Positions 30,307 to 45,540 of a stretch of DNA of 64,000 bases are shown here, in pieces. Under the pieces are notes generated by a model, which had not been told where the DNA came from, did not search any database, and saw only the letters and a program-made list of their open reading frames with translations. This DNA is from an uncultured Spartobacteria bacterium (GTDB lineage: Bacteria; Verrucomicrobiota; Verrucomicrobiia; Chthoniobacterales; UBA6821), in the NCBI GenBank assembly GCA_903868795.1, contig CAIPWR010000108.1, forward strand, positions 5,589 through 69,588, in the 5' to 3' direction. Positions within the stretch are counted from its first letter, which is position 1, and each line of letters opens with the position of its first letter. The position numbers and the translations under genes are program-made.

Positions 30307-31107
30307 TTACGAATTAAATAATCCTATCAGTTTCTTTAGTTCTCGATCCAGCACCGAACCTGCCGTGTAGTCGGCTGGGGAGATCAGGTTGACGCGGCCT
30401 TCTTCGAGTAGCAGCTTGGCCTTCTTTTTTGCGGCTGATCCGGGCTTGTGGACGGCGACGGAGTAGCCGCCCATGTTTTTCACGAGGCTCATGCAGGGGA
30501 CATCGGTCTCCCCGTCACCGATAAAGATCATCCTCTCGAAGGGAATGGGGCGTTTTTCCATTGGCTTGTAGGCGTTGATCCCGGCTGTGTCCCAGACATC
30601 CAGGCATCCCTTGTTGATGCGGAAGAGGAACTGCGTCTTCGTCGTGTAGTTCACGGCCATGGAGGGCCACTTTGCGATGCCGTTCTGGTCATACAGGAAC
30701 GACGAGGCATAGATGGTCTTGAACTCTTTCCCGATTTTGCACCCCTCGATCATCTCCTTGATTCCTGAGGAGATAATGTAGTGCTCGAGCTTCACCCCCT
30801 TGCTCTTGGCAAAGCGGTTCATCCTGCCGAACCAAGTCTCCACGCCCGGGAAGAAATCAATATCCCTTCCATGGTTCTGGAAGGACTTGCGTGTTAGCTC
30901 CACCCCGTTCTGCATCCCGGCCTCGCGGACCATTAAAAACATATAACAAAGGATCGGGTCCGCGTTCTGGGTCTTTGCCAGATCCAGAGCCATCTTCCAG
31001 AACTGCTTTGGCTTCACCCCAAGCTGCGGAATATACCCGTACTCCTGCATGTAGCGGGGACAGAGAGTCCCGTCGAAGTCGTAGCAGAGGGCAACAGTGC
31101 CTTTCAT
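30307..31107 (-). CDS. HAD-superfamily hydrolase
   Basis: CYDFDGTL (motif I) and IGDGETDVPCM (motif IV). Confidence 0.8.
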   Translation of the reverse strand: MKGTVALCYDFDGTLCPRYMQEYGYIPQLGVKPKQFWKMALDLAKTQNADPILCYMFLMVREAGMQNGVELTRKSFQNHGRDIDFFPGVETWFGRMNRFAKSKGVKLEHYIISSGIKEMIEGCKIGKEFKTIYASSFLYDQNGIAKWPSMAVNYTTKTQFLFRINKGCLDVWDTAGINAYKPMEKRPIPFERMIFIGDGETDVPCMSLVKNMGGYSVAVHKPGSAAKKKAKLLLEEGRVNLISPADYTAGSVLDRELKKLIGLFNS

Positions 31108-31165: not shown

Positions 31166-31558
31166 TCAAAACAGTCCCTGAAGGCCCTGAAGGCGGATGA
31201 GGGTACTAGTCAGGATCAGGGCCAGCGGTGTTCGGGCTTCTCGTTTCGCTGGCGGATACGGTACCAGAGGTGGTGGCATTCGAAGCAATGGAAAATCAAC
31301 GTCTTCCTTTTTGGTGATGCGCCCCCGAGATGCTGTCGGTTTCCGGCGACGCTTTTTCCCTTCCAGAGCTGCATTCTTTTCGGTCCATCCCTCCTCTCGG
31401 ACATAATCACTGACTTTCCTCACCTCCTCCTCGGTGATCTTCCATCCGTCATGGCGGCGCACGCCGATCACCTTCTCTGGGGTAATCACGAAGGCATACT
31501 CCATCCCGTTCAGGGTGAGGCGGACTTGCCCTTCGGCAGCGTGTTTGAAGGTGTTCAT
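31166..31558 (-). CDS. hypothetical protein with a basic tail
   Basis: 130-aa ORF. The N-terminal 60 aa look globular and the rest is Lys/Arg/Pro-rich. Confidence 0.45.
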   Translation of the reverse strand: MNTFKHAAEGQVRLTLNGMEYAFVITPEKVIGVRRHDGWKITEEEVRKVSDYVREEGWTEKNAALEGKKRRRKPTASRGRITKKEDVDFPLLRMPPPLVPYPPAKREARTPLALILTSTLIRLQGLQGLF

Positions 31559-31587: not shown

Positions 31588-32403
31588 CTAGGCTGCCTTG
31601 CGTTCCTCCCCTTCGTTTCCCTGCTCGGTTGTGGGCACATCACTTTGAGAGGTCGGAGAGACGGGGGAAATCCCGGCGTCGGGATCCTGAGGCTTTTGAA
31701 GTGGTTGTTCAGGAGCGCTCTGGAGGGCTTCCGATTGGGATAAGGGCTTCTGGGTTCCCTTGCGGTTCGACTTTTTCTTTGTAGGGGCAGGGGTGCTGCC
31801 GCTGTCGACTGATGTAGGAGTTGCTTGGGCTTTTGTTTTTCCAGAGCTCTTCGCTTTGGAGCCGGCATCCTTGGAAACCTTCCTACCTTTTTTGGTAGGT
31901 TCCTCGACATGGGCGGCATGGTAGTCCAGTTCTGCGAGATAGACGGCATCCTCAGGAGTCGTTCCTGCGTAAAGAACCTGCATCAGTGCTGGGTAGTAGC
32001 GGTCAGCTGTTCCAAGGGCGGTTCCAAAAAGGCGACGGATCATCCCATCCTCCAGCTTGCCCTCGGGCATCACATGGGATGCATGGAAGCGAACTTCCCC
32101 ATCCTTCCAGTCCATCTCGAAGTTCCCGACAACGAGACCGTAATTGGCACGGGTGATGAACTCCGCGGCAATGGCACGAAAGGGTTCCTTCACCATCACG
32201 GGGTACTCGATGAAGATCTGAAGAACGTCGCCGGTCTTGTCGAAGTTGAAGCGACACTTCTGCACGGCATTGCCCGAGTTCATGGAGAACCAAATACGGC
32301 GCTCCTCGCGTTTGCAACTGTAGCGGATGCCAACTGCCTCAAAATGGTCGAGCAGGGCTTGGAAGGGATCGCCGTAGATGGGGTTATGGTTTTCGTCGTT
32401 CAT
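31588..32403 (-). CDS. YbjN-like (T3SS-chaperone-fold) protein with disordered Lys-rich/acidic tail (copy 1)
   Basis: FITRANYGLVVGNFEMDWKDGEVRFH and YAGTTPEDAVYLAELD. Paralogous to 41936..42682. Confidence 0.65.
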   Translation of the reverse strand: MNDENHNPIYGDPFQALLDHFEAVGIRYSCKREERRIWFSMNSGNAVQKCRFNFDKTGDVLQIFIEYPVMVKEPFRAIAAEFITRANYGLVVGNFEMDWKDGEVRFHASHVMPEGKLEDGMIRRLFGTALGTADRYYPALMQVLYAGTTPEDAVYLAELDYHAAHVEEPTKKGRKVSKDAGSKAKSSGKTKAQATPTSVDSGSTPAPTKKKSNRKGTQKPLSQSEALQSAPEQPLQKPQDPDAGISPVSPTSQSDVPTTEQGNEGEERKAA

Positions 32404-32525
32404 GGGTGTTTTCGGGGTTGGGGAATTGGTTATGGGTTATTGGGAAATCCGGGGGCGGGACAAAGATCCGCGTGTGTCATGAATTCATCTTGGATGGGGC
32501 TGGTGTCAGCATCTGTCGTGACGTT

Positions 32526-33380
32526 TCAATTCATCGCATATCCCGTCTCAGCGAGTTCCCCGAGGCACTTCGGGCAGAGGGCCATTCTCCATGATCGGCC
32601 ACACTCCTTCCGCCAGGTCCAATTGGGACTGTTCAGTGAGGCCCGCACCGCCCTGACCGGTCCATCGATTGGGCAGAGGAATGGGGCCTCTTTCGTGGCT
32701 TGGGTATCCGGGAAATCAAAGAAGCGTCGTGCATAGAGACCCTCAAGGAGGGGATCTCTCCCCTTGTGGAGTGGATGATGCAGGCTTGCCGCAAAATCCC
32801 AGAAGGGTTGGTCCCCCCGGCTTCCAGCATGGCGGATCTCGATCCCCCCGATGGAGTAACACCAGTGTGAGCGTCCTGGCTTGGAGAGCGCTTTACGAAA
32901 ACCGAAAAAGCACTCTTTGAAGAGCCGGCGCACATGGTTTGAGGAGAGCCGTTGCTTCACTGTGTATCCGTCTGGTATCGGGTTGCGCTCGCTTTCGGGC
33001 AAATAGATCCACTCCTCCGTCTTCCCTCGCGGGCCACACTGGAGGATGTAGTCGGCTTCATGGGAGCGCTCCAGAAGGGCAGCAAGGAAAAGAAAATCCT
33101 TGGTATGAGAAAGCTTGCTTCCCCATTGCGGTGCGAGTTGCGTTTCGGAAGGGATCTCACACGGAGTGTATTTTGCATGAAACTCCTCATCCATCGGTTC
33201 TAGAAGGGAAAGATCCGCCAATTCTTTTAGGCGTTGTTCCCTGCTTTCGTTAGCGCAACGGATGTTCTCCAACTTGTCCTCCACAATCCGTTCATCACGC
33301 AGTTTCAAAAAATGGGCGCGTTCCTCCTCATCGAGGTCATCCATTGCGAGGATCGCATCGTAGGCGTTTTCGTATTCCAT
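32526..33380 (-). CDS. hypothetical protein with C-terminal Cys pair
   Basis: 284-aa ORF lying 12 nt downstream of the AAA+ gene. The C-terminal CPKCLGE suggests a zinc-binding knuckle. Confidence 0.5.
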   Translation of the reverse strand: MEYENAYDAILAMDDLDEEERAHFLKLRDERIVEDKLENIRCANESREQRLKELADLSLLEPMDEEFHAKYTPCEIPSETQLAPQWGSKLSHTKDFLFLAALLERSHEADYILQCGPRGKTEEWIYLPESERNPIPDGYTVKQRLSSNHVRRLFKECFFGFRKALSKPGRSHWCYSIGGIEIRHAGSRGDQPFWDFAASLHHPLHKGRDPLLEGLYARRFFDFPDTQATKEAPFLCPIDGPVRAVRASLNSPNWTWRKECGRSWRMALCPKCLGELAETGYAMN

Positions 33381-33392
33381 GGTGATTGGTGT

Positions 33393-34502
33393 TCAGGCGG
33401 CAAAGCCGAGAATCTTGCTTTCGGAGGAGTTTGTTCCCTCCTGCTCATTGAAAATCTCCGCAAGGGAGTAATCCTCCGGCCCTCCAGGTAGAGAGAGTCC
33501 ATGGTGGGCTGCGAGGCGGCGGGCGTCGGTGCGGGAGAGGCGTCCGAAGTGACGGCGTGCCATGAGGCGTCCGGGTCGAAGCAGGGCGTCGTCGAGATCG
33601 GAAGCGCGACAATTCACCGTCGCGATGATCTGCAGGCGGAGGAAGTCGGCCAACATTCCGTCCGAGTAGTTTAGGACAACCTGCACAAGCGAGCGGTTAT
33701 CATTGGCACGGGCCATGAGTGCCTGCTCGGCATCCTCGATGATCAGCGCGAGTTTTTTGTCCTGATGGAGTTCCCTCTGACGGGCCCAGAATGAGATGAA
33801 GTCACTATCGACCAAGCAGCCGATCTCATGAGGAGCGATATAATAGAAGCAATGAGTCTTCGCGTGCTGGGACACCAGATGCCTTAGGAAGGTCGTCTTC
33901 CCGGTTCCAGGAGGTCCCTCCAGAATCGTCAAGCCAGACGGTTTGTCCTCAAAACGATGCATAAAATCCGCATGCCAGCCGTTGAAATCCTCGCCATAGA
34001 GGAGTGATAATTCCTGCGCATCGGGCACCTTGACACCCTCCAGTGGGACGGTCTCCGTCCCGATACATCCGCAGGAACGTTCAATCAGATAGTAGCATGG
34101 CTTGATAGGCTTAACCAAGGACCACGCCATTTTGTAAAGCCGCCGTGCGAGCTTAGCCGTCGACTTCCAGTCGCGACCATAGGCACGGATGGTCGAGCGA
34201 TAGCAGGTGGCGAACATGCCGCTTCGGGTTCGTAGGATAAGAGCTTGGGCGGTGAAAACTCCCTTGCAGTCCCACTCCGAATCGGTACGCAGGAGTTTCT
34301 TTTCAAGACGCTTGCCGAGGGCCTTGAGATCGTATTTGGGAGGAGTGACCTCGACGCGGTGCAGGGGGCCGCTGCCCAGCTCCTCCATGAGACAAAGCGG
34401 AAGTCCCCCACCCTCCTCCATATAAACGGGAACCATGGTGAGTGGAAAGGTTTGCTGCGGAGCGGGCATCAGTGGCTTCTGGTTGAAATCGAAGGTTTCC
34501 AT
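33393..34502 (-). CDS. BCS1-like classic-clade AAA+ ATPase (paralog 2)
   Basis: Walker A GPPGTGKTTF, Walker B LIIEDAEQAL, and ATVNCRASDLDDALLRPGRL. The C-terminus is KILGFAA. Confidence 0.85.
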   Translation of the reverse strand: METFDFNQKPLMPAPQQTFPLTMVPVYMEEGGGLPLCLMEELGSGPLHRVEVTPPKYDLKALGKRLEKKLLRTDSEWDCKGVFTAQALILRTRSGMFATCYRSTIRAYGRDWKSTAKLARRLYKMAWSLVKPIKPCYYLIERSCGCIGTETVPLEGVKVPDAQELSLLYGEDFNGWHADFMHRFEDKPSGLTILEGPPGTGKTTFLRHLVSQHAKTHCFYYIAPHEIGCLVDSDFISFWARQRELHQDKKLALIIEDAEQALMARANDNRSLVQVVLNYSDGMLADFLRLQIIATVNCRASDLDDALLRPGRLMARRHFGRLSRTDARRLAAHHGLSLPGGPEDYSLAEIFNEQEGTNSSESKILGFAA

Positions 34503-34554
34503 GAGTTGTGTGTAAGAGTTGGTTTGATATGCCGGACAGGGTCAGCGTGCAGGC

Positions 34555-35052
34555 TTATCGATGGACGGTGCCGCTATAGGAGCGTCCGCCAGCTGTGGTC
34601 CCCGAAACCGAGTAATTCCCACCGCCGGTGTAGGTGACATTCCCTGATCCGCCCCGATAGGTGCTGTAGCTGGCGCTGCCATTACCATTGTAGGTTCCAC
34701 TGCCGTAGCGGCCGTAGTAGGTCCCGTTCCCGCCACAGTAACCATACGGGCGATAGTAGTTCCCATAGCAACCTCCATAACCGGTATATCCACGATAGCA
34801 CCCGCCCCACCAACCGAAGAATCCGTAGGGTGCATAGCCTCCGTAATATCCGTAGGGATTGTAATAGGTCGCGTAAGGATTTCCGTAATATCCGGGATAA
34901 TAGGTAGTATAAGTAGGCGCAACCCATGGAGTGGTCACCGTGGTTCCATTTGGGTAAGTTATTGTGGCACAGGAGCAAAGTGCTGATGAAATCAGTGTAA
35001 AAAGAATAATGTTATATAAATTAAATGATTTCATTTCTACTATATTAGACAT
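34555..35052 (-). CDS. secreted/lipoprotein-like Gly/Tyr/Cys-rich protein (GY-1)
   Basis: N-terminal signal FTLISSALCSC, followed by an extreme G/Y composition that includes GNYYRPYGYCGG. Confidence 0.65.
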   Translation of the reverse strand: MSNIVEMKSFNLYNIILFTLISSALCSCATITYPNGTTVTTPWVAPTYTTYYPGYYGNPYATYYNPYGYYGGYAPYGFFGWWGGCYRGYTGYGGCYGNYYRPYGYCGGNGTYYGRYGSGTYNGNGSASYSTYRGGSGNVTYTGGGNYSVSGTTAGGRSYSGTVHR

Positions 35053-35138
35053 AGCGATTATTTCTGTTAATTACGAGCTGAAACGCGGAAAGCGTATGAG
35101 ATCGGGATGACATTTCCTGTCGGTTCCAGATGAGGGGA

Positions 35139-36218
35139 TCATGCGGCGAATCCGATGCGGCAGGGTGTAGGTTCCACATCACGGATGGGCTCCGCCGAAA
35201 AGATCTCCGCAAGGGAATAATCAGTGCGCAAAGGGAGCTCCTTCCCGAGCGAACGTGCGAGGCGGTGGCCATCCTGATGGGAAAGGCGACCGAAGGTGCG
35301 TTGGGCGGTCAGGCGACCGGGGCGGAGAAGTGCCTGATCAATATCGGTCGTGGCACAGTTCATGGTCGCGACGATGTGCAACTGGAGGAAATCCGCCAGA
35401 AGGCCATCGGTGACATTCAGGATCGCGGAGACTTCGGAACGATTGTCCATGGCGCGCGGGGCAAGGGCCGCCTCAGCATCCTCCAGAACCATGACGAGCT
35501 TTTTGCCTTCGGCCTCTTGCTTTTGGCCGTTCCAGAAGTCGATGAAATCTGGATTGGAGACGATCCCGACCGTCGAAGGTGGAACGAAGTAGAAGCGGTG
35601 CGAGGTGCGAAGCTCCACCATCAAATGGCGAAGATAGGAGGTCTTTCCGCAGCCTGGAGTCCCGTCAAGGATCGTCAGCCCGTGGGGGCGCTCGGAAAGG
35701 GCCTTGATAAAACCGGTATGCCAATCGAGGAATTCGGAGCCGTAATTGAGCGCCAGCTTCTCCTCGGCGAGACCGAACTCGGCCTTCATCGTGACTGCAA
35801 AGGTGTTGAGATCCCCGCGGCTCACGCGAAGAAGGTGATAGGTGCCGAACTCCGGCGCCTCCTCCTCGTTTGCCACAAGGTAACGTTGCAGGAGACGACC
35901 CAGCAGATGGCATGCACGAAGAGTTGGTCCGTAGACCTTGAGACACCCTTCGTCAAAATGAATGAAGAGCCCGCGATCCGAGCCGAAGATCACATGGAAC
36001 CAATGCTTCTCCTCTCCCATCCCCCCGCTGTCCGAGCGGAGGATGCGTTTGGAGAGATTTTTGGCCATCGAATTGATGTTCCAGCGTGAATCGCGGCAAC
36101 GTAGGCGGAGTCGGTGAAAGTCACGTGTTCCGTAATGTGAGAGAACCGGTTGAGGTGGGTTTTCCCCCGATTCTTCGAAGGCGTAAGAGGTCGAGACGAT
36201 CTGGTTGATGGTATTCAT
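35139..36218 (-). CDS. BCS1-like classic-clade AAA+ ATPase (paralog 1)
   Basis: GTPGCGKTSY, MVLEDAEAAL and ATMNCATTDIDQALLRPGRL. The C-terminus is CRIGFAA. Confidence 0.85.
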   Translation of the reverse strand: MNTINQIVSTSYAFEESGENPPQPVLSHYGTRDFHRLRLRCRDSRWNINSMAKNLSKRILRSDSGGMGEEKHWFHVIFGSDRGLFIHFDEGCLKVYGPTLRACHLLGRLLQRYLVANEEEAPEFGTYHLLRVSRGDLNTFAVTMKAEFGLAEEKLALNYGSEFLDWHTGFIKALSERPHGLTILDGTPGCGKTSYLRHLMVELRTSHRFYFVPPSTVGIVSNPDFIDFWNGQKQEAEGKKLVMVLEDAEAALAPRAMDNRSEVSAILNVTDGLLADFLQLHIVATMNCATTDIDQALLRPGRLTAQRTFGRLSHQDGHRLARSLGKELPLRTDYSLAEIFSAEPIRDVEPTPCRIGFAA

Positions 36219-36274
36219 GGAATGAGTCGAAGGGTCTGGATTGTCAAAAAACTGGTGGATTCCGGTGCGGGGGA

Positions 36275-36673
36275 TCAGTTGATTCCTGCAGCGCGGAGAG
36301 CATTGATGGTTAGGTCACGGGCACCCTCTTCTTCAGGTACAAACTGCTCCACCACCATGCGGATCACCTGCGCCGGGGTGAGGGGACGGAAAACCCGCAG
36401 ACTGCGGCGATGCTCGCGCAGTGCGGACTCCGATTCCTCGTTGGTCGCCGTGGTCCAGATGCTTCCATCCCAAATCTGGATGATGGTTCGCGCAATGTAG
36501 AATCCATGCTCATCCGAGTGGTGCAGCATGCTGTCCACATCGAGGAAGTTTCCCTCCTCATCCTTGTCTAGGAAGAGTGTGGTGATGTAAGTGTCGTTGG
36601 AGGGGTCGTACGTGGGCTTGGATAAGAGCATATGGGTGATTGGCGTGGGGAGTGAATATGAGTTGATTGACAC
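36275..36673 (-). CDS. hypothetical protein (first gene of the minus-strand arm)
   Basis: 132-aa ORF with a GTG start at 36673. No motif recognised. Confidence 0.45.
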   Translation of the reverse strand: MSINSYSLPTPITHMLLSKPTYDPSNDTYITTLFLDKDEEGNFLDVDSMLHHSDEHGFYIARTIIQIWDGSIWTTATNEESESALREHRRSLRVFRPLTPAQVIRMVVEQFVPEEEGARDLTINALRAAGIN

Positions 36674-36694
36674 ATAAACCCTCCTTAATCACCC

Positions 36695-36709
36695 CGACAC
36701 GGAGTGTCG
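36695..36709. promoter_or_regulatory. palindrome CGACAC-gga-GTGTCG (motif site a)
   Basis: Perfect 6-3-6 inverted repeat in the divergent intergenic region. Confidence 0.4.
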
Positions 36710-36736
36710 TTGAAACATCTGCCGTAAATAACAGAC

Positions 36737-36751
36737 CGACACTCCCTGTCG
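36737..36751. promoter_or_regulatory. palindrome CGACA-ctccc-TGTCG (motif site b)
   Basis: 5-5-5 inverted repeat with the same CGACAC..GTCG core. Confidence 0.4.
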
Positions 36752-36962
36752 TTCGCAGGCTTCTTAAGTATCGGCTATGACATCGAACTGTATTACATCT
36801 GATACTGTCGTGATTTTCTCAATTCCAACGTACTCAAAAAGCCGGAAGCCAGGTAGCGGAGGAAAACGTAGGGAGTCATTTTTTCAAACCCTCTTGACCG
36901 GATCCCATTTTATGCAATCTTCCAAAACGATGAATGAACTGTTGACACGCCGAAGGCGAAGA

Positions 36963-36980
36963 CCCGACACAACCGTCGGG
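36963..36980. promoter_or_regulatory. palindrome CCCGAC-acaacc-GTCGGG (motif site c)
   Basis: Ends 14 nt upstream of the ATG at 36995. The 21-mer cccgacacaaccgtcgggacc is identical to the one at 45507. Confidence 0.45.
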
Positions 36981-36994
36981 ACCCTGCGCTTTAG

Positions 36995-37429
36995 ATGTCC
37001 TCTAATTCATTCCCATGTTTACACAGCGATCTAGTTGATCTTGACGAAGCGGCTTCTGGCCGTGTCGCCCACCTTTCGTTGCCGAATTGTCGGTACGAGA
37101 TTCCTCCCTCCCGCAAGAAACGGAACAAGGAGTGGCACCGCTTGCTTAGCTTACGGCGTGCCATGCGCCTTCAAGACCACCTTAGCAAAAAATCGTACTC
37201 CTTTAGCAAACAATGCAACGAGCGCGGGGCATTGGAGTCCGAGATCGACCATATCGAAAAGTTTCTTGAGGCCCACTTCGCCTGGGATCTGCTCGGTGGA
37301 CGTTTCTTTGCCTGCAAGGAACGTGATCTTTCCTTTGAAAAAGTAGCGATCCTGAAGCGTCTGCATTTGCAGGAAATGCGTGAAACAACCCTTGAGCTTT
37401 TTTCTTCGGGCTACCGGAATTTTTGCTGA
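36995..37429 (+). CDS. hypothetical protein (first gene of the plus-strand arm)
   Basis: 144-aa ATG ORF lying 33 nt upstream of AAA+ paralog 3. Confidence 0.45.
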   Translation: MSSNSFPCLHSDLVDLDEAASGRVAHLSLPNCRYEIPPSRKKRNKEWHRLLSLRRAMRLQDHLSKKSYSFSKQCNERGALESEIDHIEKFLEAHFAWDLLGGRFFACKERDLSFEKVAILKRLHLQEMRETTLELFSSGYRNFC

Positions 37430-37462
37430 GCTCCTGTCTTTGGAAAACCTCAATCTCAACCC

Positions 37463-38644
37463 ATGAAAACGCAGAAACCTTCAAACCCTCTTCATCCACT
37501 CACCACGCTCGATCTTAACGCTAACAAGAAAAGTGTTTCTAGAAGCCGTAGCAAGGTCATGATGAACATCGACCTTGCGGATATCGACTCTTGGGGGGCA
37601 GATGCCTGCACTCCTCCTCTTCCTGTCCTTGCCTTTTATGGTGCTGATCCACTTCATCGGTTTGCTTTGCCGCGTGGACGTTTTGATATTGCCCGCCTGA
37701 CGAAACAATTTGCCTCACGAATCGTACGCTCTGACAGTCGTCCCGGAGGAAAATCCGATTCTGAGGATCAGGATGGTTGGAGGAGCGTCCTCTTCCATTT
37801 CAAGGGATTTGGCGCATGGCTGCACTATGAGCACGGCACGATCAGCACCTATGCGGCGACCCGTCGAAAGGCGATGCTCTTGGCTCTGAAGATGGAACGT
37901 TACCATCTCAAGGATAAAGAGACTGGCGGAAGCTTTGAATTGATCTCCCTGGAGAATGGATCGATCGATACCGAGACAGTCACCCTAGGGATGGAAACAA
38001 TCCTTGAAGATCGGATTCTCTCCCTGCATTACGGCGAGGACTTTCCTAAATGGAGTCGCGATTACGAAAGCATAATCACTTCGAAAAAGAGCGGTTTGAG
38101 TATCCTGGATGGGCCTCCCGGCACGGGTAAGAGTTCTTTCATCCGCCACCTGATGGGGAAGTTAAAGAGCTCGCACAGATTCTTTTTTGTTCCCCCGAGC
38201 GTGATCGATGTCGTGAGCAACTCCTCTTTCGTCAGCTTCTGGAGTCGTCAACAGATGAGTCACAAGGGACGCCAGTTCGTTCTTGTGCTGGAGGACTCCG
38301 AAGCTGCATTGATGAAGAGGGCTGCGGACAACCACTCGCTTGTGAGCAGTCTGCTCTCGGTCACCGATGGCCTTCTGGGGGACTTCATGAAGATCCAGGT
38401 AATCTGCACGATCAATTGCAAATACCAGGACATCGATCCTGCTCTTCGTCGTGCGGGACGCTTGGTTGCTCACCGCCACTTCCCTCGACTGAGCTACAGC
38501 AAGGCCTGCTCTCTCGCTGATAAGATCGGTCGTCCCGTTCCGAGCAGGGAGGAATTCTTCGATGGGGACTTCTCCCTCGCCGAGATCTACAACGCCGACG
38601 CCGCTCCCCAGCAGGAGTCGAAAATCATCGGCTTCGCCGCATAA
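37463..38644 (+). CDS. BCS1-like classic-clade AAA+ ATPase (paralog 3)
   Basis: GPPGTGKSSF, LVLEDSEAAL and CTINCKYQDIDPALRRAGRL. The C-terminus is KIIGFAA. Confidence 0.85.
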   Translation: MKTQKPSNPLHPLTTLDLNANKKSVSRSRSKVMMNIDLADIDSWGADACTPPLPVLAFYGADPLHRFALPRGRFDIARLTKQFASRIVRSDSRPGGKSDSEDQDGWRSVLFHFKGFGAWLHYEHGTISTYAATRRKAMLLALKMERYHLKDKETGGSFELISLENGSIDTETVTLGMETILEDRILSLHYGEDFPKWSRDYESIITSKKSGLSILDGPPGTGKSSFIRHLMGKLKSSHRFFFVPPSVIDVVSNSSFVSFWSRQQMSHKGRQFVLVLEDSEAALMKRAADNHSLVSSLLSVTDGLLGDFMKIQVICTINCKYQDIDPALRRAGRLVAHRHFPRLSYSKACSLADKIGRPVPSREEFFDGDFSLAEIYNADAAPQQESKIIGFAA

Positions 38645-38698
38645 TTAACCCGGCGATCAGCGACTCCTCCTGACGCATCTTCCCTATAGAAAAAGGGC

Positions 38699-39154
38699 AT
38701 GAAAAGAATTCTAATCCTGATCACGATCGTCCTCATTACTGCCACTGCTTCTCCCTCTCTTCATGCCAATCCTGGTTGGAATGGCGGATGGAACGGGGGA
38801 GGGGGCTATTCTCATAGCGGAGGCGGTGGACAATATCACCATGGAGGTGGAGTTCAGCATTATCAGGGCGGCGCCAGGTGCTACCCCGGGTGGAATGGAG
38901 GATACTACCGCCCCACTGCCTGCAGTTACGGTGGTGGCTATGGCCATGGTGGAGGGTACGGCGGAGGTTGTGGTTCTGCAGGAGGATGGTATGGCACCGG
39001 AATTCCGAATGGCCTGGGGTGGGTGCTTTGCGGACTCGGACTCGGAGGTCTCTTGGGAGTGGCTACCGCGCCGATGATCGTTGCTCCCCAGCCCGTCTAT
39101 GCTGCTCCTGCGCCCGGCATCTATTCGGCTGCCTACGGCACGCCGGTTTACTAA
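38699..39154 (+). CDS. secreted Gly/Tyr/Cys-rich protein with glycine-zipper hydrophobic tail (GY-2)
   Basis: Signal peptide ending SLHA|NP, a GGYYRPTACSYGG core, and a GLGWVLCGLGLGGLLGVA segment. Confidence 0.65.
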   Translation: MKRILILITIVLITATASPSLHANPGWNGGWNGGGGYSHSGGGGQYHHGGGVQHYQGGARCYPGWNGGYYRPTACSYGGGYGHGGGYGGGCGSAGGWYGTGIPNGLGWVLCGLGLGGLLGVATAPMIVAPQPVYAAPAPGIYSAAYGTPVY

Positions 39155-39181
39155 GACGTCAAGAAGTCGCGCGGTTTTCGT

Positions 39182-40078
39182 ATGAGTTCATTACCTCCAC
39201 CCATGCAGACAGAGTTGTCATTCCGTGGCGAAGAAGATGATTTCCTTCGCGAGTGGCTTCGTGAACGTCGCAAGACGCGTCTGCAGCGTCTAGGTGAATG
39301 GCTGGAGATGTCGGTCCTTCTTCCAGTTATTCAGGGTCTGCTAGCAGTAATCAGGGTAGCCGAGCCACTCCGAGTTGTCCCGGCACCCGTATGGACGATT
39401 GGCTCCATGCTGATCTCGATCGCAGTCTACTCTTCCAGGATGGGGTGGAAACTGGCACTTGGCTTCATCACCCTCTTGATGATCCACGAGAGCGGGCATC
39501 TGCTTGCGGCACGCTATTACGGGGCGCGCATGAGCGTTCCGATCTTCATCCCCTACATCGGGGCGATTATTGACATGAAGGAGCCGATGCGGAATGCCTG
39601 GGAGGAGGCCGTCTTCGGCATCTCGGGGCCGCTTTTGGGGACCCTTGGAGCCTGCCTCTGCTGGATCACGGCAGGCATCACCGGCAGCTTCTACTTCGCC
39701 GAGCTGGCACTCTTTGGTTTTTTCCTCAATCTCTTCAACCTCATTCCACTTGGCTTTCTTGACGGAGGACACGTCGCAGTCGTGCTCACTCGTTGGCTCT
39801 GGATTCCCGGCTACCTCATGATGGGCGCCTTCGCATGGTATGTGCATTCGCCTGTCGTGATTATCTCGCTTGTCGTCATGCTTCCAATGGTCCTCTCCCT
39901 CTTCCGGAAGAAACCACATAAAGACAATCTCTATGACCGCGTGCGGCTCGGGAAGCGTTTCGCCATGGGTGCCATCTACCTGGCCCTTGTCTCTTTCCTC
40001 GCCTGCTCCATGTCCTGGATTTTCATCAAGGACATCTACCCCGGCCTCAAGCAAGGCAAGAGCCTTATCAAGCTTTAA
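39182..40078 (+). CDS. M50 (site-2-protease-type) membrane metalloprotease (copy 1)
   Basis: HESGHLL (HExxH) and NLFNLIPLGFLDGGH (the NxxPxxxLDG motif). Polytopic. Confidence 0.75.
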   Translation: MSSLPPPMQTELSFRGEEDDFLREWLRERRKTRLQRLGEWLEMSVLLPVIQGLLAVIRVAEPLRVVPAPVWTIGSMLISIAVYSSRMGWKLALGFITLLMIHESGHLLAARYYGARMSVPIFIPYIGAIIDMKEPMRNAWEEAVFGISGPLLGTLGACLCWITAGITGSFYFAELALFGFFLNLFNLIPLGFLDGGHVAVVLTRWLWIPGYLMMGAFAWYVHSPVVIISLVVMLPMVLSLFRKKPHKDNLYDRVRLGKRFAMGAIYLALVSFLACSMSWIFIKDIYPGLKQGKSLIKL

Positions 40079-40104
40079 TCCGACGTGTGCGCCGATCTCA
40101 ATAA

Positions 40105-40458
40105 CTAAGAGTGTATGATCAAGCTGGTTCGATTAATCTCCACGTGCGAAGCGATCTCGAATGCCGACTCGATCGCTTGAAGATTTCGTCGAAGTAAATT
40201 CCTTAGTTCGGAATTTGGAATATTTCCCGTTGAGATTTGGAGAAGTCTCCGGGGGGTGCCTTTCAGAAGCAGGGAAACGACAAAGTCGGAATCCTTGCTC
40301 ACAACGATCAAGCCCTCCGAATCTGCCATTGCTGATATTAAAGTGTCGGGAGTCCTATTGCCCATCTCGAGATCCAAGGTATGGATCACCTCATGCCCCG
40401 CGTTACTGAATACGCTGCGAAGCGTACCGGGCAGTTGGGCATCTAACAGGAACCTCAC
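40105..40458 (-). CDS. DUF5615-like (PIN-like) toxin
   Basis: MRFLLDAQLP...VVSKDSDF pattern. Overlaps the DUF433 gene by 4 nt. Confidence 0.65.
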   Translation of the reverse strand: MRFLLDAQLPGTLRSVFSNAGHEVIHTLDLEMGNRTPDTLISAMADSEGLIVVSKDSDFVVSLLLKGTPRRLLQISTGNIPNSELRNLLRRNLQAIESAFEIASHVEINRTSLIIHS

Positions 40459-40697
40459 GCCGCGATCGGTTCAAGCCGCTTCACACGGCTCATCCTTGCA
40501 GCGTACGCAAATACAGCCTTGAGATCATCGGCTTCAAGATCCGGGTAATCGACAAGGAACTGTTCCACCGAGGTCGGGCCGCTAAGCATTTCCAGCACAA
40601 ACTCCACTGGGTATCGCATCCCCCTTAGGCAAGGCTTGCCATGACAGATGTCAGGATCCGTTGTGATTCGGGCCATTAATTCTGCTTCAGACATCAT
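40455..40697 (-). CDS. DUF433 antitoxin-like protein
   Basis: The ITTDPDICHGKPCLRGMRYPV motif is typical of DUF433. Confidence 0.7.
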   Translation of the reverse strand: MMSEAELMARITTDPDICHGKPCLRGMRYPVEFVLEMLSGPTSVEQFLVDYPDLEADDLKAVFAYAARMSRVKRLEPIAA

Positions 40698-40716
40698 GTT
40701 ATCTTATTCTCTATGA

Positions 40717-40923
40717 CTGGCATTTGCAAGTTCACCGGCATCGTGGAATGGCACCGGTATCCCGAATGGTCTCGGGTGGACCCTCTTTGGCCTCCAGGCA
40801 GTCGCTGCCATTGCCTGCCCACCGGTAGTTGTCGCCCCCCAGCCCGTCTACACAGCTCCCGTCTACATCCCCCCGCAGCCTGTGTATTACCAGCCAGTCT
40901 ACGCCAGCCCCGTCGTTTACTGA
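40717..40923 (+). pseudogene. 3' fragment of a GY-family gene (no start codon)
   Basis: The open frame begins right after a TGA at 40714. It encodes ..SWNGTGIPNGLGWTLFGLQAVAAIACPPVVVAPQPVYTAPVY..VVY*, which matches the C-terminus of GY-2 (WYGTGIPNGLGWVLCGLGLG..VAPQPVYAAP). Confidence 0.6.
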
Positions 40924-40935
40924 GCATTTACCTCC

Positions 40936-41661
40936 TTGTACAAGCGAGCGCCTGAAGGACGAAACCCTGACACACCAATCCGGATGACTCCGTTAATGCA
41001 ACTCTCTGCCATCGAGCGATGGGTCGATCCTCGGCGTATCTTCCACACGGTTGATCTCCTGCCGGAACCTCCAGCGTTGCTGGACATGCGACACCTCCTT
41101 ACGCCCAAGCAGGCCGCGGCTTGCGTGCCCGGCATTTGCCTCACGGTAACACCTCCTGCGGCCACCAAATTCAATGCCCAACTCTGTTTTTGGATCACAC
41201 GTGATGGGAAGAAGTCGGCTGTCTGCTCGTTCGCCGAGGGTGATCAGGAAATCTGTGCCGAATGGTTTCCGGATTTTGAGAGCACCAGCGAGATGACGGA
41301 CTTCATCGAGGAGAGGACGACCCGTTTTCTGCTGGAGCATCTCTTCGGACCGGCTTTGGACGAATGGGCCGCCTCAAAAGGGATACGCTGCGAGGAGTGT
41401 GCCAAGCCGTCGTCAGTTTTTGAGTTGGGGGCCAAGGCTTGCCACTACAGCTCAAGCAGCGGGTTTGATGACTGGCTCTTCATCGAGGTTGAGGACGGGG
41501 AAGGCTATGGCGTCACCCTTGGCATCTCGGGACGCGGAGAGTCAGCCACATTCACCTGTGACGAGGAGGGTTTTCTAGAGTTTGATCTTCGTGCCAACGG
41601 ACTCAAGACCGGCACGGAACTCATCGTCTGGATTGAGGGGGCAATCAGTAAGCACGCCTGA
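40936..41661 (+). CDS. hypothetical protein
   Basis: 241-aa ORF with a TTG start (an alternative ATG lies near 40984). No motif recognised. Confidence 0.45.
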   Translation: MYKRAPEGRNPDTPIRMTPLMQLSAIERWVDPRRIFHTVDLLPEPPALLDMRHLLTPKQAAACVPGICLTVTPPAATKFNAQLCFWITRDGKKSAVCSFAEGDQEICAEWFPDFESTSEMTDFIEERTTRFLLEHLFGPALDEWAASKGIRCEECAKPSSVFELGAKACHYSSSSGFDDWLFIEVEDGEGYGVTLGISGRGESATFTCDEEGFLEFDLRANGLKTGTELIVWIEGAISKHA

Positions 41662-41774
41662 TCTTTTTCCTCACATTTCTGATTTTCCACACGTCTGCTT
41701 CACCTGTCCGAAAGGCTACAGCCTGTATCGCTCAAGCCTTTCGCTTAATTTTATCACCAATTTTTCTCACCCAG

Positions 41775-41789
41775 CGACACCTCTCGTCG
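41775..41789. promoter_or_regulatory. palindrome CGAC-acctctc-GTCG (motif site e)
   Basis: The same CGACAC..GTCG core, about 145 nt upstream of the YbjN-like gene at 41936. Confidence 0.3.
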
Positions 41790-41935
41790 CCGCCCTATGT
41801 CAGGATTGCTTCAACTTCAGAATCGATGAACCCAATCCCCGCATCACCATTCCCCGATACGGGAAGATCCCCCCTTTTATACCTTCCACCTTCTAACCTT
41901 CACCCATTCCCTAACTCCTAGCCCCTATATCACCC

Positions 41936-42682
41936 ATGTCCGACTCCAATACCCCGTTTGAACCCGCAACCGGCCCCGACTTCGGAGGGCCCTTCAAGAC
42001 CGTGTGCGATCACTTCGAGGAACACATGAAATCCGTGAACATCGATTGGGAGAAAAAAACCCTCCGTTTCCAAGTTTATGGCGACCACGCGAACATGGAT
42101 GTCCGGATTCGTGTCTGCGAGGAGGATCATGTCCTCCAGTTCTTCATCACGCTACCCTTCCGGGTGGCGAACGAGAAGATGCGACCCATCGTGGCCGATT
42201 TTGTGGCCAGGGCAAATTGGGGTCTCGTCGTCGGATCGCTGGAATTTGACATGAGGGACGGGGAACTCGTCTACCACATGACGCAGTTGCTTGAGAACCA
42301 CACGATCGGTGATCAACTCATAGGACGTCTGTTTCGCACAGGCATGTCGACGTTCGACAGGTACATCCCCGGCATCTTTCAGATCATTTACGGAGGGAAT
42401 ACCCCGGAAGACGCCGTCTACCTTTGCGAATTGGACATGCATTCCTCCCAAGATGCCGACACCCAGTCCTCATCCGTCGCGCCGAAGAAGAAAAAGCCGG
42501 CACCGCGTCGAAAGAAATCCACCAGCAAGGACGCCGGTAAGGAAAGCGGACAGGAGAGTCATTCCTCTGATTCCGGAAACCATGCAGCTCTCGAATCCCC
42601 AGCACCTCAGGATCCCATGGGTAACAATCAGGCAGAGGATCGTGGTACATTTTCTGCAGAGGCCGAGGAGGATGAATTTTAG
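41936..42682 (+). CDS. YbjN-like protein with Lys-rich/acidic tail (copy 2)
   Basis: FVARANWGLVVGSLEFDMRDGELVYH and YGGNTPEDAVYLCELD. Paralog of 31588..32403. Confidence 0.65.
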   Translation: MSDSNTPFEPATGPDFGGPFKTVCDHFEEHMKSVNIDWEKKTLRFQVYGDHANMDVRIRVCEEDHVLQFFITLPFRVANEKMRPIVADFVARANWGLVVGSLEFDMRDGELVYHMTQLLENHTIGDQLIGRLFRTGMSTFDRYIPGIFQIIYGGNTPEDAVYLCELDMHSSQDADTQSSSVAPKKKKPAPRRKKSTSKDAGKESGQESHSSDSGNHAALESPAPQDPMGNNQAEDRGTFSAEAEEDEF

Positions 42683-43136: not shown

Positions 43137-43523
43137 ATGAGGGAAGAATTGCGAATTGAGTTAAGTGAGTTATGTGAAGGCAATCCAGGTGTACGTAAAC
43201 TCATGCTCCATTTTTCCACATCTGAAGATGTGGCTTTTACTTCCATAAGTGATTTGGCAGCTATCGTGGGAAAGGATCCCACTGATTCAGCTGTCCGCGA
43301 AGTTGCCGATGAGCTCCTGCGGTATTTTTCCGATCAGCTAGATCTTGGTAATCCCCGCACACGGGCAAACCTTTTTGAGACTTTCCGTGCTGTCAGGAAT
43401 TCCAGAAGGACTTTTGAAGAAGAGGTCGCCGTTCGCCGAGTAAGATTCTTAAAATATCCGCTGGGTGCTCTGGTGCGGGCGACGGGCCTCCATCATCGGT
43501 TCTGGTCTTTGATTTACCCGTAG
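43137..43523 (+). CDS. hypothetical protein
   Basis: 128-aa ATG ORF following an AT-rich spacer. Confidence 0.4.
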   Translation: MREELRIELSELCEGNPGVRKLMLHFSTSEDVAFTSISDLAAIVGKDPTDSAVREVADELLRYFSDQLDLGNPRTRANLFETFRAVRNSRRTFEEEVAVRRVRFLKYPLGALVRATGLHHRFWSLIYP

Positions 43524-43583
43524 AGGATTCCCCGCTGGATGATGGAGTCTGCCCATCGCTTCAGAACGCGAAGCGCGGCAGTA

Positions 43584-44327
43584 TTACGGAGACGATTTCG
43601 ATGCAGTTGCATTTGCATGAAGGTTTTTCCTGAGGAAGAGGTGTTGAGATCCTGGCATCGGGGCGTAATTTTCCAAGGTCATCCCGTGTGTTCCGAGTGT
43701 GGACAGAAGCCTCTCCTTGGGCCAGCAGCGGATCTGGAACTGATCACGGTAACGGATTCGGGCACCGTTCCGAAGGTCATACGAGTCCTCGGTGTAGCGG
43801 TAGAGTCCGTTGCCGAGTGGCTCGACAACCATGTTGCGCTCCATGCGGCCGGTTTTCTTGGACATGGAGCCAAAAGCCCCTTCGCTTGGGGCATCCAGAA
43901 TCAGAAGTCCTCCGGGTTTCAGCGATCGGGCCATGACGGAGCAGGCAAGTTCCAGCTCATGCTCCTCGGTCGTATAGGCGATGACCGTGAAAAGACAGAG
44001 GGCGAGATCCTGATCTCCCTCGGGAATGAAGCCCTGGATCTTTTGGGTGAAATGATTGATCGGCACCTCTGCATCCCCGGCTTTTCGGAGAAGGACCTGC
44101 ATCATGGATGTGGAGGGTTCGACCGCTGTGACTTGATGGCCCTCGAGTGCAAGAGGTATGGCGACACGTCCCGTCCCGGCACCGAAGTCGATGATTTTTT
44201 TCCTGCCATCAGCGTTCCTGGTGATGTGGGAGAGGGTTTCCCGTGTGAAGCTCCCGTACATCGCACCGAAAGTTTCCTCGTAGAAGAAATCGTAGACCTC
44301 GGCCCAAGGTTCATGAGGTAATGGCAT
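43584..44327 (-). CDS. class I SAM-dependent methyltransferase
   Basis: IIDFGAGTGRVAIPLALEGHQVTAVEPS motif. Confidence 0.75.
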   Translation of the reverse strand: MPLPHEPWAEVYDFFYEETFGAMYGSFTRETLSHITRNADGRKKIIDFGAGTGRVAIPLALEGHQVTAVEPSTSMMQVLLRKAGDAEVPINHFTQKIQGFIPEGDQDLALCLFTVIAYTTEEHELELACSVMARSLKPGGLLILDAPSEGAFGSMSKKTGRMERNMVVEPLGNGLYRYTEDSYDLRNGARIRYRDQFQIRCWPKERLLSTLGTHGMTLENYAPMPGSQHLFLRKNLHANATASKSSP

Positions 44328-44473
44328 GTGAAAAGTACTTCACAAGCCTTTCATGCAAGTCAAAGCATATTTCAGTTGTACTGTTCGCGGAATTGACACC
44401 AATGTTGGATTGCCATGTGTCGAGTCAGTTGAGAGAAGAGGATATCTTTTTGATTTTCTAAAAATTCCATCAA

Positions 44474-45394: not shown

Positions 45395-45506
45395 TCAAAT
45401 CTAGCAACGAATGCTGTCTTACACCGAAAGATTCCTTGCAATAGCCGGAGGTTCTACGCAACTTGCTCACATGATTCACTTGTACAACACGCGTTTTAGA
45501 TGCGCG

Positions 45507-45524: not shown

Positions 45525-45540
45525 ACCGCCATCTTAACAC

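Follow-up and report, generated by a model that had tools for sequence, protein, structure and literature searches.

A conserved gene module of BCS1-like AAA+ ATPases, an M50 protease and orf132 with a palindromic operator in freshwater Verrucomicrobiota

A 64,000-nucleotide stretch of DNA from an uncultured Spartobacteria bacterium (GenBank assembly GCA_903868795.1, contig CAIPWR010000108.1; in the following, the window) contains a locus in which three BCS1-like AAA+ ATPase genes are found together with genes for an intramembrane metalloprotease of the M50 family, YbjN proteins, glycine- and tyrosine-rich (GY) proteins and a small acidic protein, orf132. Comparison with related loci revealed that it belongs to a real, undescribed gene set of freshwater Verrucomicrobiota with a conserved pair of operator palindromes. 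The families of the parts are known (classical AAA with a Bcs1/YjoB-like fold, site-2 protease (S2P)/M50, YbjN and WYL), and the general principle of an AAA+ remodeller, a protease and an adaptor under a ligand-sensing regulator is familiar. New are the specific partnership, the I-G-F-tailed ATPase subfamily and the operator. We tentatively read the gene set as a conflict or stress module.

The open reading frames (ORFs) of the window were checked against the coordinates in an earlier note on this DNA, and Pfam families were assigned with the gathering scores as cut-off. Related loci were recovered independently through ATPase, orf132 and M50 searches and mapped with family hidden Markov models (HMMs). 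L-numbers (L024, L082 etc.) denote the related locus contigs recovered, and the window served as the reference for identities. Every ORF listed in the earlier note was found at its given position, and its M50, YbjN and toxin-antitoxin (TA) assignments were matched by Pfam. The boundaries it had drawn (31588-42682) proved too narrow: the locus spans ~28.1–52.0 kb, extending on the left over orf130, HAD and WYL genes (28126-31558) and on the right over variable cassettes and a second M50 gene (48469-49335) up to a DUF2130 gene (50412-52010). The WYL regulator, the operator palindromes, orf132 as an ever-present gene and the jumbo-phage relatives were absent from that note.

Conserved gene neighbourhood

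About 25 independent contigs carry the module neighbourhood, so that the association of AAA+, GY, M50 and YbjN genes proposed for the window is conserved elsewhere. Read outwards from the divergent intergenic region, one side of the core arrangement consists of an optional AAA3-type ATPase, M50, one to three copies of orf241, and DUF2130. The other side consists of orf132, a GY-1-type lipoprotein gene, an ATPase, orf284 and YbjN, usually but not universally followed by a gene of 132 amino acids (aa), a gene of ~250 aa, HAD and then WYL. In the window, the minus arm has the order orf132, AAA1, GY-1, AAA2, orf284 and YbjN-1, and the plus arm the order orf144, AAA3, GY-2, M50-1, an opposite-strand TA pair, a GY-2-like remnant, orf241 and YbjN-2. 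As the DUF2130 protein matches the gene that follows orf241 elsewhere (45-50% identity to a 407-aa DUF2130 gene in L024, L082, L089 and L092), the plus arm covers ~37.0-52.0 kb.

One ATPase gene was found in L024, L033, L088 and L089, two in L082-84, L092/93 and L085/86, and three in the window only. L081 lacks orf284 and the arm ATPase. In L085/86 and L097, M50, orf132 and the ATPase gene(s) lie on one strand, and GY, YbjN, HAD and WYL are missing. Across these variants, M50, orf132 and at least one ATPase form the constant set. Orf132 was present in all 23 module loci examined, with 44-76% identity overall, 60-76% in canonical loci and 45% in L085/L097.

The mirror-image locus with an ATPase trio, as described in the earlier note, is present in the window; the common form in relatives is asymmetric, with one or two ATPases. 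AAA1, GY-2, orf144 and YbjN-2 were added in the window lineage, with AAA1 and orf144 present in close relatives such as L087 too, and these additions cause the mirror-image look, which is a lineage-specific elaboration and not the definition of the system. The distribution is narrow (15 orf132 loci in the metagenome scan), and the module was seen mainly in metagenome assemblies. No curated defence (PADLOC), NCBIfam, Pfam or literature source was found that describes it, in agreement with the earlier impression that the combination matched no described system.

BCS1-like ATPases

AAA1, AAA2 and AAA3 are true paralogues, as had been proposed, with 39-42% identity over the full length and Pfam AAA scores of 31-39.5 bits (cut-off 21.2). 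All three contain the Walker A motif G[PT]PG[TC]GK[TS] and the ED-type Walker B motif hhhhED[AS]E; the RPGR/RAGR arginines of the second region of homology are also present. They have a family-specific N-domain and the C-terminal end ...GFAA in common. The N-domains are 23-32% identical among the window paralogues, compared to 48-50% for the AAA cores.

An aromatic pore loop 1 ([YFW][VILM]G between Walker A and Walker B) was found in none of the three paralogues. AAA3 contains no hydrophobic segment, i.e. no N-terminal transmembrane (TM) anchor, and the Pfam family BCS1_N gave no match at E ≤ 0.1 in the window ATPases. Because both TM anchor and aromatic pore loop 1 are missing, the ATPases more plausibly work as holdases or translocases than by threading.

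The AlphaFold (AF2) model of AAA3 had a mean confidence (pLDDT) of 84, with the N-terminal 30 residues disordered. In a Foldseek comparison with solved structures, Bcs1 ranked top over the full length, N-domain included (E about 1e-12; Bcs1 chains aligned over ~350-394 columns at E = 6e-13), at a low TM-score of 0.36-0.46. Second, and the best match other than Bcs1, was YjoB of B. subtilis (PDB 7w42); Ycf2-FtsHi was also among the fold matches. The ranking by sequence only differs, with Cdc48/AFG2-type modules above Bcs1 among solved proteins. Judged by the model, the ATPases are a small, distinct subfamily with a predicted BCS1/YjoB-like fold, which agrees with the BCS1-like label of the earlier note.

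A search with the N-domain returned only 48 cluster representatives among 1.84 billion proteins; the non-fragment ones are nearly all ~350-420 aa long and carry the domain N-terminally. Nearly every family member, from Verrucomicrobiota to distant Bacteroidota, has the tripeptide [I/L/V/M]-G-F 3-12 residues or less from its end, in most cases following basic residues. In Clp ATPases, an exposed [ILV]-G-[FL] tripeptide docks in hydrophobic pockets of ClpP (PMC8745299, PMC9035409). The I-G-F tail resembles this docking tripeptide in sequence, but it sits in a tail, not in a loop, and the ATPases are not Clp/Hsp100 members. The "-AA" of the window's GFAA ending was considered as an ssrA-like degron and rejected, the conserved element being I-G-F and not AA.

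Pseudomonas jumbo phages of the PA5oct/MIJ3 group carry a homologue with 38% identity in the AAA core, which is also the top structural match to AAA3 overall (E = 1e-24). Common motifs are Y..DF, VEDAE, LLN.SDG.LGD, CT.NC and LA.IYN, and the phage protein (L102:1688-3115, 475 aa) ends in ...KIGFG. On plasmids, the ATPase family is nearly absent (two Bacteroidota megaplasmids only).

Operator and candidate regulator

The divergent intergenic region of the window contains two exact CGACA-N5-TGTCG palindromes, CGACACGGAGTGTCG and CGACACTCCCTGTCG, versus 0.03 expected. Exact copies lie in the same interval, between M50 or an ATPase gene and orf132, in L024, L033, L081, L087, L088 and L090, and the background of the exact motif is 6 per 1.03 Mb in unrelated loci. 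When the otherwise diverged spacer was aligned for 13 loci, all 16 invariant columns came from the two palindromes, whose spacing is 42-43 bp in most loci.

Further copies with at most one mismatch precede GY-1, YbjN-2, o335 and o213 in the window (background for such sites 0.13 per 10 kb). Single copies were found upstream of the GY gene in L082, L089, L092 and L094; in L082, L089 and L092, they precede GY, orf241 and YbjN. The motif copies before internal units define a regulon and tie the M50-2 region into it.

By its WYL and WCX domains, the window's WYL protein is assigned to the PafBC/BrxR/CapW type; it has PafBC as its best PDB sequence match (E = 3.7e-10), and its helix-turn-helix (HTH) was recognised by eye only (KKLAALCDVKDRTILRDIDQI). 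Its gene is adjacent, at 68-83% identity, in L024, L033, L082 and L089 and lies within 4 kb in L092; identity in L088 is 38%. A WYL gene stands beside the ATPase family in 17 of 86 loci from Verrucomicrobiota and Bacteroidota. The HTH-WYL-WCX protein is the only DNA-binding protein that travels with the module and is the candidate regulator for the palindromes. Defence systems gated by WYL regulators have been described (PMC9122588, PMC4012209).

M50 protease and accessory proteins

M50-1 (Pfam score 52.8 bits, cut-off 27.2) contains HESGH at residue 102, NLIPLGFLDG at residue 186 and ~6 hydrophobic segments. Its nearest solved sequences are MjS2P, SpoIVFB and RseP. The window M50 is 100% identical to ENA 'BUCK21-1' metagenome scaffolds. 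M50-2 matches M50-1 with E = 1.6e-75 and has the motifs HETGH and NLIPVGPMDG. The module M50 is a specialised branch that stems from a short M50 family common in Verrucomicrobiota, whose generic members (40-46% identity) stand in housekeeping contexts without an ATPase.

M50-2 lies among o237, o335, o343 and o213 (45541-50154), with palindromes at 46214 and 49465. This layout suggests a second, divergent protease sub-module of the same regulon. The position of o213 after M50-2 is like that of orf241, to which it has no detectable homology. The group of orf241 paralogues in L024 includes a gene to which o237 has 39% identity, and an o335-like gene is present in L087. An apparent N-terminal motif, Y-[PA]-[GS]-x-[GE]-x-D...P, is common to o335 (46596-47603), orf306 (44474-45394) and a 272-aa gene of L087 (L087:2514-3332); in BLAST, a link was seen only between o335 and the L087 gene, with 34% identity across one third of the protein. 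By sequence, the three may be another family of variable cassettes.

YbjN-1 consists of a YbjN-fold domain (by Pfam) and a disordered tail of ~90-100 aa that is rich in K, S and P and contains a PPPIPP motif. Orthologues occur in at least eight loci, and tailed ones were seen in L024, L033, L081, L082, L089, L092 and L095. The C-terminus reads (E/D/G)RKAA in 8 of 9 module orthologues including the window (7 of 8 other loci); YbjN-2 and more distant YbjN neighbours in L027 and L042 lack the RKAA tail. The tail may serve for docking or act as an ssrA-like degron. YbjN-2 is 31-38% identical to YbjN-1 orthologues and has no positional orthologue in other loci.

Orf132 has no Pfam match, no PDB match and no TM segment. 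In a database of 5.8 billion, orf284 is represented by only 25 clusters, all of them lacking Pfam domains; in L024, L033, L082 and L088 it comes immediately after the arm ATPase, whose stop codon it overlaps. Its AlphaFold model, built with 22 homologues, reached a pLDDT of 60, with a best Foldseek hit of only E = 0.39. Profile searches of PDB sequences with orf284 and orf132 gave nothing real; a Protein A-like assignment of orf284 was rejected, the PDB matches being a helical low-complexity artefact. Orf130 and orf241 have no Pfam match. The orf241-family proteins are soluble, without TM segment, and occur as three tandem paralogues in L024 and as two to three in L092.

All accessory families (orf241, YbjN, orf132, orf284, o237, o213, o335, o343, orf128, orf306, the 132-, 250- and 148-aa genes, GY-1 and HAD) were compared with each other by hhalign, with probabilities of ≤2% throughout. 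The idea that orf241 and o213 are hidden YbjN-like or mutually related proteins was unsupported by hhalign and dropped. Orf144 has no homologue in most loci; a 272-aa gene of L087 at its position has the N-terminal 50 residues and the C-terminal region in common with it. Orf144 is a real but young gene.

GY proteins

The GY-1 family HMM had matches in seven loci of the first set and in seven more of the metagenome set. The family shows a conserved ILCSC lipobox-like motif followed by TT[VI]TYPNGT.VTTPYVAP, and GY-1 has one N-terminal hydrophobic segment; by these features it is a conserved lipoprotein-like family. The earlier note had treated GY-1 and GY-2 as a pair, but no homology between the two was detected: the GY-1 family HMM gave E = 1 on GY-2, and the architectures differ. 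GY-2 was seen only in the window and in near-identical metagenome copies, not in related loci, and its position between ATPase and M50 is empty in L081, L082 and L092. The GY fragment noted earlier is real. Frame +1 at ~40717-40923 reads WNGTGIPNGLGW...APQPVY... and matches the C-terminal half of GY-2.

Diversification and genomic context

Conservation differs widely along the block. HAD is its most conserved gene (90-92% identity in seven related loci), followed by WYL (68-83%; 38% in L088), orf132 (60-76% in canonical loci), YbjN-1 (53-73%), M50 (47-70%), orf284 (44-60%) and orf241 (32-38%). ATPase identities are mostly 35-45%, which equals the paralogue level. Fifteen module ATPases were sorted into seven lineages, between which identity does not exceed 51%, and the slot after the GY gene alone holds at least three of them. 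AAA2 is 73% identical to its L024 counterpart and only 35-45% to the same-slot gene in other loci, and AAA3 has orthologues in L081 (80%), L082 and L092 (both 56%). AAA1 is a lineage of its own, 34-43% identical to all other full-length module ATPases. Unlike the window, complete-arm relatives have no ATPase between orf132 and GY; an AAA1 orthologue follows orf132 in L087 (91%, partial gene), and L097 has a partial match of 68%. The seven ATPase lineages are swapped at fixed slots between conserved flanks, and both ATPases and orf241 cassettes are replaced or diversify much faster than the genes around them. Gene content varies as well (one to three ATPases, orf284 present or absent, one to three orf241 copies). 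Synteny stops at WYL on one side; beyond orf241 on the other, only DUF2130 and a weak o237 match keep it.

The type II TA pair of the window (73.1 and 76.5 bits; 4-bp gene overlap at 40455-40458) is not found in related loci. The M50/orf241 junction that holds it has independently received an AbiEii toxin gene in L089 (L089:4385-5584). The toxin gene of the window's pair is left uncalled in some of the metagenome copies. The L085 variant is surrounded by DndB, TIR-NLR and NACHT genes: downstream of M50-orf132-AAA-AAA come a gene of 97 aa and one for an NLR-like TIR-NPHP3_N-TPR protein of 952 aa (L085:11577-14435), and the upstream flank carries DndB and a NACHT-TPR protein. In L088, an SMC/SbcC-like ATPase adjoins the module.

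In other genomes, the ATPase family stands beside RNase T-like exonuclease, GmrSD, MoxR-VWA-metallopeptidase and UDG-like genes. Verrucomicrobiaceae and Prosthecobacter loci (L006-L018, L021, L025, L028, L036, L037, L051) have an unknown gene of ~330 aa upstream of a full-length ATPase; about eight of them have an RNase T-like DEDD exonuclease (~180 aa) directly downstream, and a GmrSD or UDG-like gene is often adjacent. ATPase plus RNase T-like exonuclease looks like a separate system built on the same ATPase. In Bacteroidota (L054-L080), the ATPases lie near WYL, RtcB, Ro60/TROVE, Band-7 and RNaseH-like (DUF458) genes, in some cases with GmrSD, and these neighbourhoods look like RNA-repair operons. 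The Bacteroidota ATPases match the AAA core and the I-G-F tail only; their N-domains may differ.

Features of the window

The features of the locus are summarized in Table 1. Membership of the methyltransferase and orf128 in the module is uncertain. GC content is a little higher over 31-43 kb, no tRNA genes were found in the window, and scans for consensus promoters and terminators stayed at chance level. A 264-aa P-loop protein and a 68-aa Cys-rich ORF lie between WYL and HAD (29371-30272), whereas the two genes are directly adjacent in related loci. Positions 1-17448 hold a lipid or aryl-polyene-type biosynthetic cluster that is not related to the ATPase module (AMP-binding enzyme, three halogenase-like FAD enzymes, acyltransferases, LolA-like, MMPL, two ketosynthases). 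A UmuC-type translesion polymerase (IMS, IMS_C, DUF4113) and a DUF3293 protein are encoded at 19836-23041, with several large unknown ORFs (22900-25383) downstream.

Table 1. Genes and sites of the locus (positions in the window)
Feature	Position	Strand	Evidence or remark
WYL/WCX regulator, HTH-WYL-WCX type	28126..29316	+	Pfam WYL, WCX; PafBC best PDB sequence match
HAD-family hydrolase	30307..31107	-	Pfam HAD
orf130, small protein after YbjN-1	31166..31558	-	~30% identity to 132-aa gene of L089/L092
YbjN-1	31588..32403	-	Pfam YbjN (PF10722), 29.2 bits vs cut-off 22
orf284, orphan with four-Cys C-terminus	32526..33380	-	motif FLCP.DGPV ... CPxCLGELAxTG
AAA2, BCS1-like ATPase, arm slot after GY gene	33393..34502	-	Pfam AAA (PF00004)
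GY-1, lipoprotein-like, G/Y/W/N/C-rich	34555..35052	-	family HMM
Operator-like palindrome TGACATTTCCTGTCG, upstream of GY-1	35108..35122		fits YGACA-N5-TGTCR
AAA1, extra BCS1-like paralogue	35139..36218	-	Pfam AAA (PF00004)
orf132, small acidic soluble protein	36275..36673	-	in all module variants
Paired operator palindromes CGACACGGAGTGTCG, CGACACTCCCTGTCG, 42 bp apart	36695..36751		divergent promoter region
orf144, upstream of AAA3	36995..37429	+	lineage-specific
AAA3, BCS1-like ATPase, first of M50 arm	37463..38644	+	Pfam AAA (PF00004); AF2 model
GY-2, signal peptide, G-rich, C-terminal TM, PXPV-like tail	38699..39154	+	composition, hydrophobic segments
M50-1, short site-2-protease-type intramembrane metalloprotease	39182..40078	+	Pfam Peptidase_M50, E = 4e-14
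Inserted TA pair, DUF5615/PIN-like + DUF433	40105..40697	-	Pfam E = 2e-20, 1e-21
GY-2-like gene remnant, C-terminal half only	~40717..40923	+	frame +1 translation
orf241, fast-evolving family, variable copy number	40936..41661	+	without Pfam match
Operator-like site, 1 mismatch, upstream of YbjN-2	41775..41789		motif scan
YbjN-2, second YbjN paralogue	41936..42682	+	Pfam YbjN (PF10722), 39.8 bits vs cut-off 22
Variable cassettes: orf128, methyltransferase (minus strand), orf306, o237, o335, o343	43137..48472		
Operator-like site within cassettes, before o335	46214		motif scan
M50-2, more divergent second M50 paralogue	48469..49335	+	Pfam M50
Operator-like site 49465-49479, then o213	49465..50154	+	o213 in orf241-like position after M50
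DUF2130 protein, conserved end of M50 arm	50412..52010	+	Pfam DUF2130

Discussion

Several hallmarks of conflict or stress systems were counted in this locus and its relatives: variable genes accreted around a constant core, a putative specificity component that is replaced by non-orthologous versions, a regulator of the ligand-sensing repressor type that has its own operators, TA/Abi insertions, an island context and phage homologues. They favour a conflict or stress module; among the roles suggested in the earlier note (protein remodelling or degradation, biogenesis of a matrix or toxin, conflict), a conflict system gains the most circumstantial support. Our reading, tentative as it is, is that of an inducible, operator-gated module whose ATPases may capture folded clients and couple to intramembrane proteolysis.

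In such a module, a dimeric regulator, most likely the WYL protein, would bind the palindromes; its WYL domain would sense a nucleic-acid-derived signal of infection or damage and switch the regulon on or off. Each ATPase ring would capture a particular folded client, an invader protein or a damaged host protein, through its diverged N-terminal chamber domain. Capture of folded clients is suggested by the lack of a threading pore loop together with a strongly diverged N-domain, as in Bcs1 and YjoB. Orf132 and YbjN would serve as adaptors or co-chaperones, and one to three ATPase paralogues would widen the range of clients. The I-G-F tail could dock the ring onto a partner, either M50 at the membrane or housekeeping ClpP, whose seven-fold ring would match a Bcs1-like heptamer. 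M50 would then cleave a substrate anchored in the membrane, most obviously the lipoprotein or its signal anchor, and an envelope-level output would stop the invader or the infected cell. That the I-G-F-tailed rings form, with M50 or ClpP, a new AAA+-protease machine, a diversifying client-specific immune sensor which jumbo phages use in their own way, is a further step suggested by the sequences that we regard as rather doubtful.

Among known systems, mitochondrial Bcs1 is the best solved match over the full length including the N-domain, at a low TM-score, and has in common with the window ATPases the ED-type Walker B and a single AAA module of ~360-390 aa. It moves folded proteins across a membrane (as cited in PMC7824862). 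The window ATPases differ in being bacterial, predicted cytosolic and multi-paralogous, in their other partners and in their C-terminal I-G-F tail; they have neither a TM anchor nor a BCS1_N match. YjoB, a chamber-forming, substrate-specific chaperone of the envelope-stress sigma-W regulon, is likewise a soluble bacterial AAA protein with a unique chamber-forming N-domain, and acts as a chaperone and not as an unfoldase (PMC9565160). Its N-domain has no detectable sequence relationship to that of the window ATPases, and it is a single gene confined to Bacilli, without M50, YbjN or lipoprotein partners. We know of no report of an I-G-F tail in YjoB. The jumbo-phage ATPases (PA5oct, MIJ3) belong to the same subfamily, with its signature motifs and I-G-F tail, but are encoded among hypothetical genes, have a longer N-domain (475 aa in total) and lack all module partners; a role in virion assembly has been proposed for them (PMC7824862).

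The proteolytic side also has familiar counterparts. Site-2 proteases (SpoIVFB with BofA/SpoIVFA, RseP, Eep, MjS2P) have HExxH and NxxPxxxxDG in hydrophobic segments, as M50-1 does, whereas the locus contains no PDZ/CBS domain, sigma or anti-sigma factor, BofA or site-1 protease, and its M50 is paired with separately encoded AAA+ ATPases. The substrate of SpoIVFB reaches it from the cytosol, and its cleavage depends on ATP. FtsH and the Ycf2-FtsHi motor likewise join a classical-clade AAA module to a membrane zinc metalloprotease, but FtsH is a fusion of ATPase and M41 that threads by aromatic pore loops, whereas the module ATPase and the intramembrane M50 are separate proteins and the ATPase has no pore loop.

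On the regulatory side, BrxR-BREX and CapW-CBASS (PMC9122588) also place an HTH-WYL-WCX protein next to variable, island-located operons with palindromic operators, and IetAS pairs an NTPase with a protease, although of another ATPase clade and protease class. No component of BREX, CBASS or Iet was detected in the module by PADLOC and, unlike the regulators of WYL-controlled defence operons, the module WYL is not divergent and shows no sign of motif-based autoregulation. Counter-ADP-ribosylation systems centred on ADP-ribosylglycohydrolase combine WYL, a HAD-type phosphatase, a chaperone of the YbjN/type III secretion system fold (TY) and variable accreted genes, and are not described there with BCS1-like ATPases or M50 proteases (PMC9503650); the glycohydrolase is absent from the module.

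Several other explanations were weighed. Envelope proteostasis or biogenesis is one that we consider unlikely: the G/Y lipoprotein would be a surface component, M50 would clear or process its signal anchor much as RseP and Eep act on signal peptides, and the ATPases and YbjN would keep the aggregation-prone precursor or other envelope clients export-competent. The lipoprotein-like GY-1 gene directly upstream of an ATPase, the descent of M50 from a common housekeeping short M50 family, the secretion-chaperone fold of YbjN (PMC9503650), the membership of YjoB in an envelope-stress regulon (PMC9565160) and the translocation of folded proteins by Bcs1 (cited in PMC7824862) point in this direction. 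However, L085/L086 keep M50, orf132 and two ATPases without GY or YbjN, the ATPases have no TM segment or membrane-association signal, and the seven ATPase lineages and the variable cassettes exchanged between 90%-conserved flanks would be surprising in a housekeeping biogenesis factor, as would TA/Abi insertions and a defence-island context. We find it equally unlikely that the module is, instead of immunity as such, a WYL-controlled proteostasis regulon induced by nucleic-acid damage, in which the ATPases would rescue or remove damaged or modified proteins, the HAD phosphatase would process a small-molecule by-product and M50 would adjust membrane signalling. Such a regulon would agree with the WYL-linked RtcB-Ro60-Band7-RNaseH-like neighbourhoods of the Bacteroidota ATPases, with PafBC, a DNA-damage-response activator, as the nearest solved WYL relative, with the high conservation of HAD and WYL as the best-conserved genes of the block, with the UmuC-like polymerase gene nearby and with the template of WYL, HAD-type phosphatase and YbjN-fold chaperone around ADP-ribosylglycohydrolases (PMC9503650). 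Yet the module contains no RtcB, Ro60, ADP-ribosylglycohydrolase, nuclease or ligase, the Bacteroidota proteins match in AAA core and tail only, so that their N-domains may differ, and rapid ATPase replacement suits variable foreign targets better than conserved host clients.

The composition and secretion signals of the G/Y/C-rich GY-1 and GY-2 would also suit a secreted bacteriocin-like or matrix-forming peptide with immunity, handled as a precursor by ATPases and YbjN and matured or released by M50, with the orf241 and o237 cassettes as immunity-type genes. Glycine/tyrosine-rich antimicrobial peptides occur in animals and plants, and the tandem, fast-evolving orf241 paralogues resemble immunity-gene arrays. 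We nevertheless find this very unlikely: the locus has no exporter, leader-peptidase domain or modification enzyme, GY-1 looks lipid-anchored and not released, the GY gene is missing in the L085/L086 variant, and orf241 proteins are soluble, unlike most bacteriocin immunity proteins. Extremely unlikely, finally, is a degenerate phage or mobile-element remnant, in which the ATPase would stem from jumbo-phage BCS1-like assembly chaperones and co-location would reflect common descent. The PA5oct-type ATPase is indeed the closest structural relative, with the same motifs and I-G-F tail, synteny with relatives ends at the block edges and GC is slightly raised over 31-43 kb; but no integrase, tRNA, structural phage gene or terminal repeat was found, all genes are intact with their catalytic motifs kept, the operator is under purifying selection in many loci, and the family is almost absent from plasmids.

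The preferred reading of an operator-gated conflict or stress module has to face points of its own. The conflict role is argued from association throughout, and the functional claims come from comparative genomics. The comparisons show the gene set, the operator, the diversification and the predicted fold, whereas the pairing of regulator and operator, client capture, coupling of ATPase to protease and the lipoprotein's role as substrate are inferred. With PADLOC-DB v2, ten module proteins gave only P-loop-local matches (mad8, MkoA, TRIP13; E ≥ 2e-5, 20-90 residues), and an NCBIfam scan of the same number gave only P-loop-level or sub-threshold matches. The WYL gene has no operator copy nearby, which leaves its assignment as regulator only the most economical guess. 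It is convergent with HAD and not divergent from the operons, no WYL gene occurs within 10 kb in the L085/L086 variant, and HAD and WYL could simply be conserved chromosomal neighbours. Family members elsewhere have no adjacent protease, so M50 may not be the docking partner, and delivery of an unfolded chain to a protease agrees poorly with the missing pore loop. The clade is narrow (25 orf284 clusters, 15 orf132 metagenome loci, 48 N-domain representatives), a distribution that would also fit a housekeeping function specific to the lineage.

Very little work exists on the BCS1-like ATPases of bacteria and phages; only YjoB has been characterised biochemically, and the jumbo-phage versions are annotation only. 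The module provides a defined genetic setting for them, with candidate partners (orf132, YbjN, M50, lipoprotein), an operator with a candidate regulator, and ATPases whose specificity varies naturally. Should the conflict reading be true, it would represent a new immune effector logic, in which a chaperone-type sensor is combined with intramembrane proteolysis, and would link that logic to a jumbo-phage protein family. If the I-G-F tail is a protease-docking element, it would add to the known ways in which AAA+ rings are coupled to proteases. Even with a housekeeping role, the locus would document an unusual pattern for a phylum that has been little studied, in which cassettes are replaced while their operator stays conserved.

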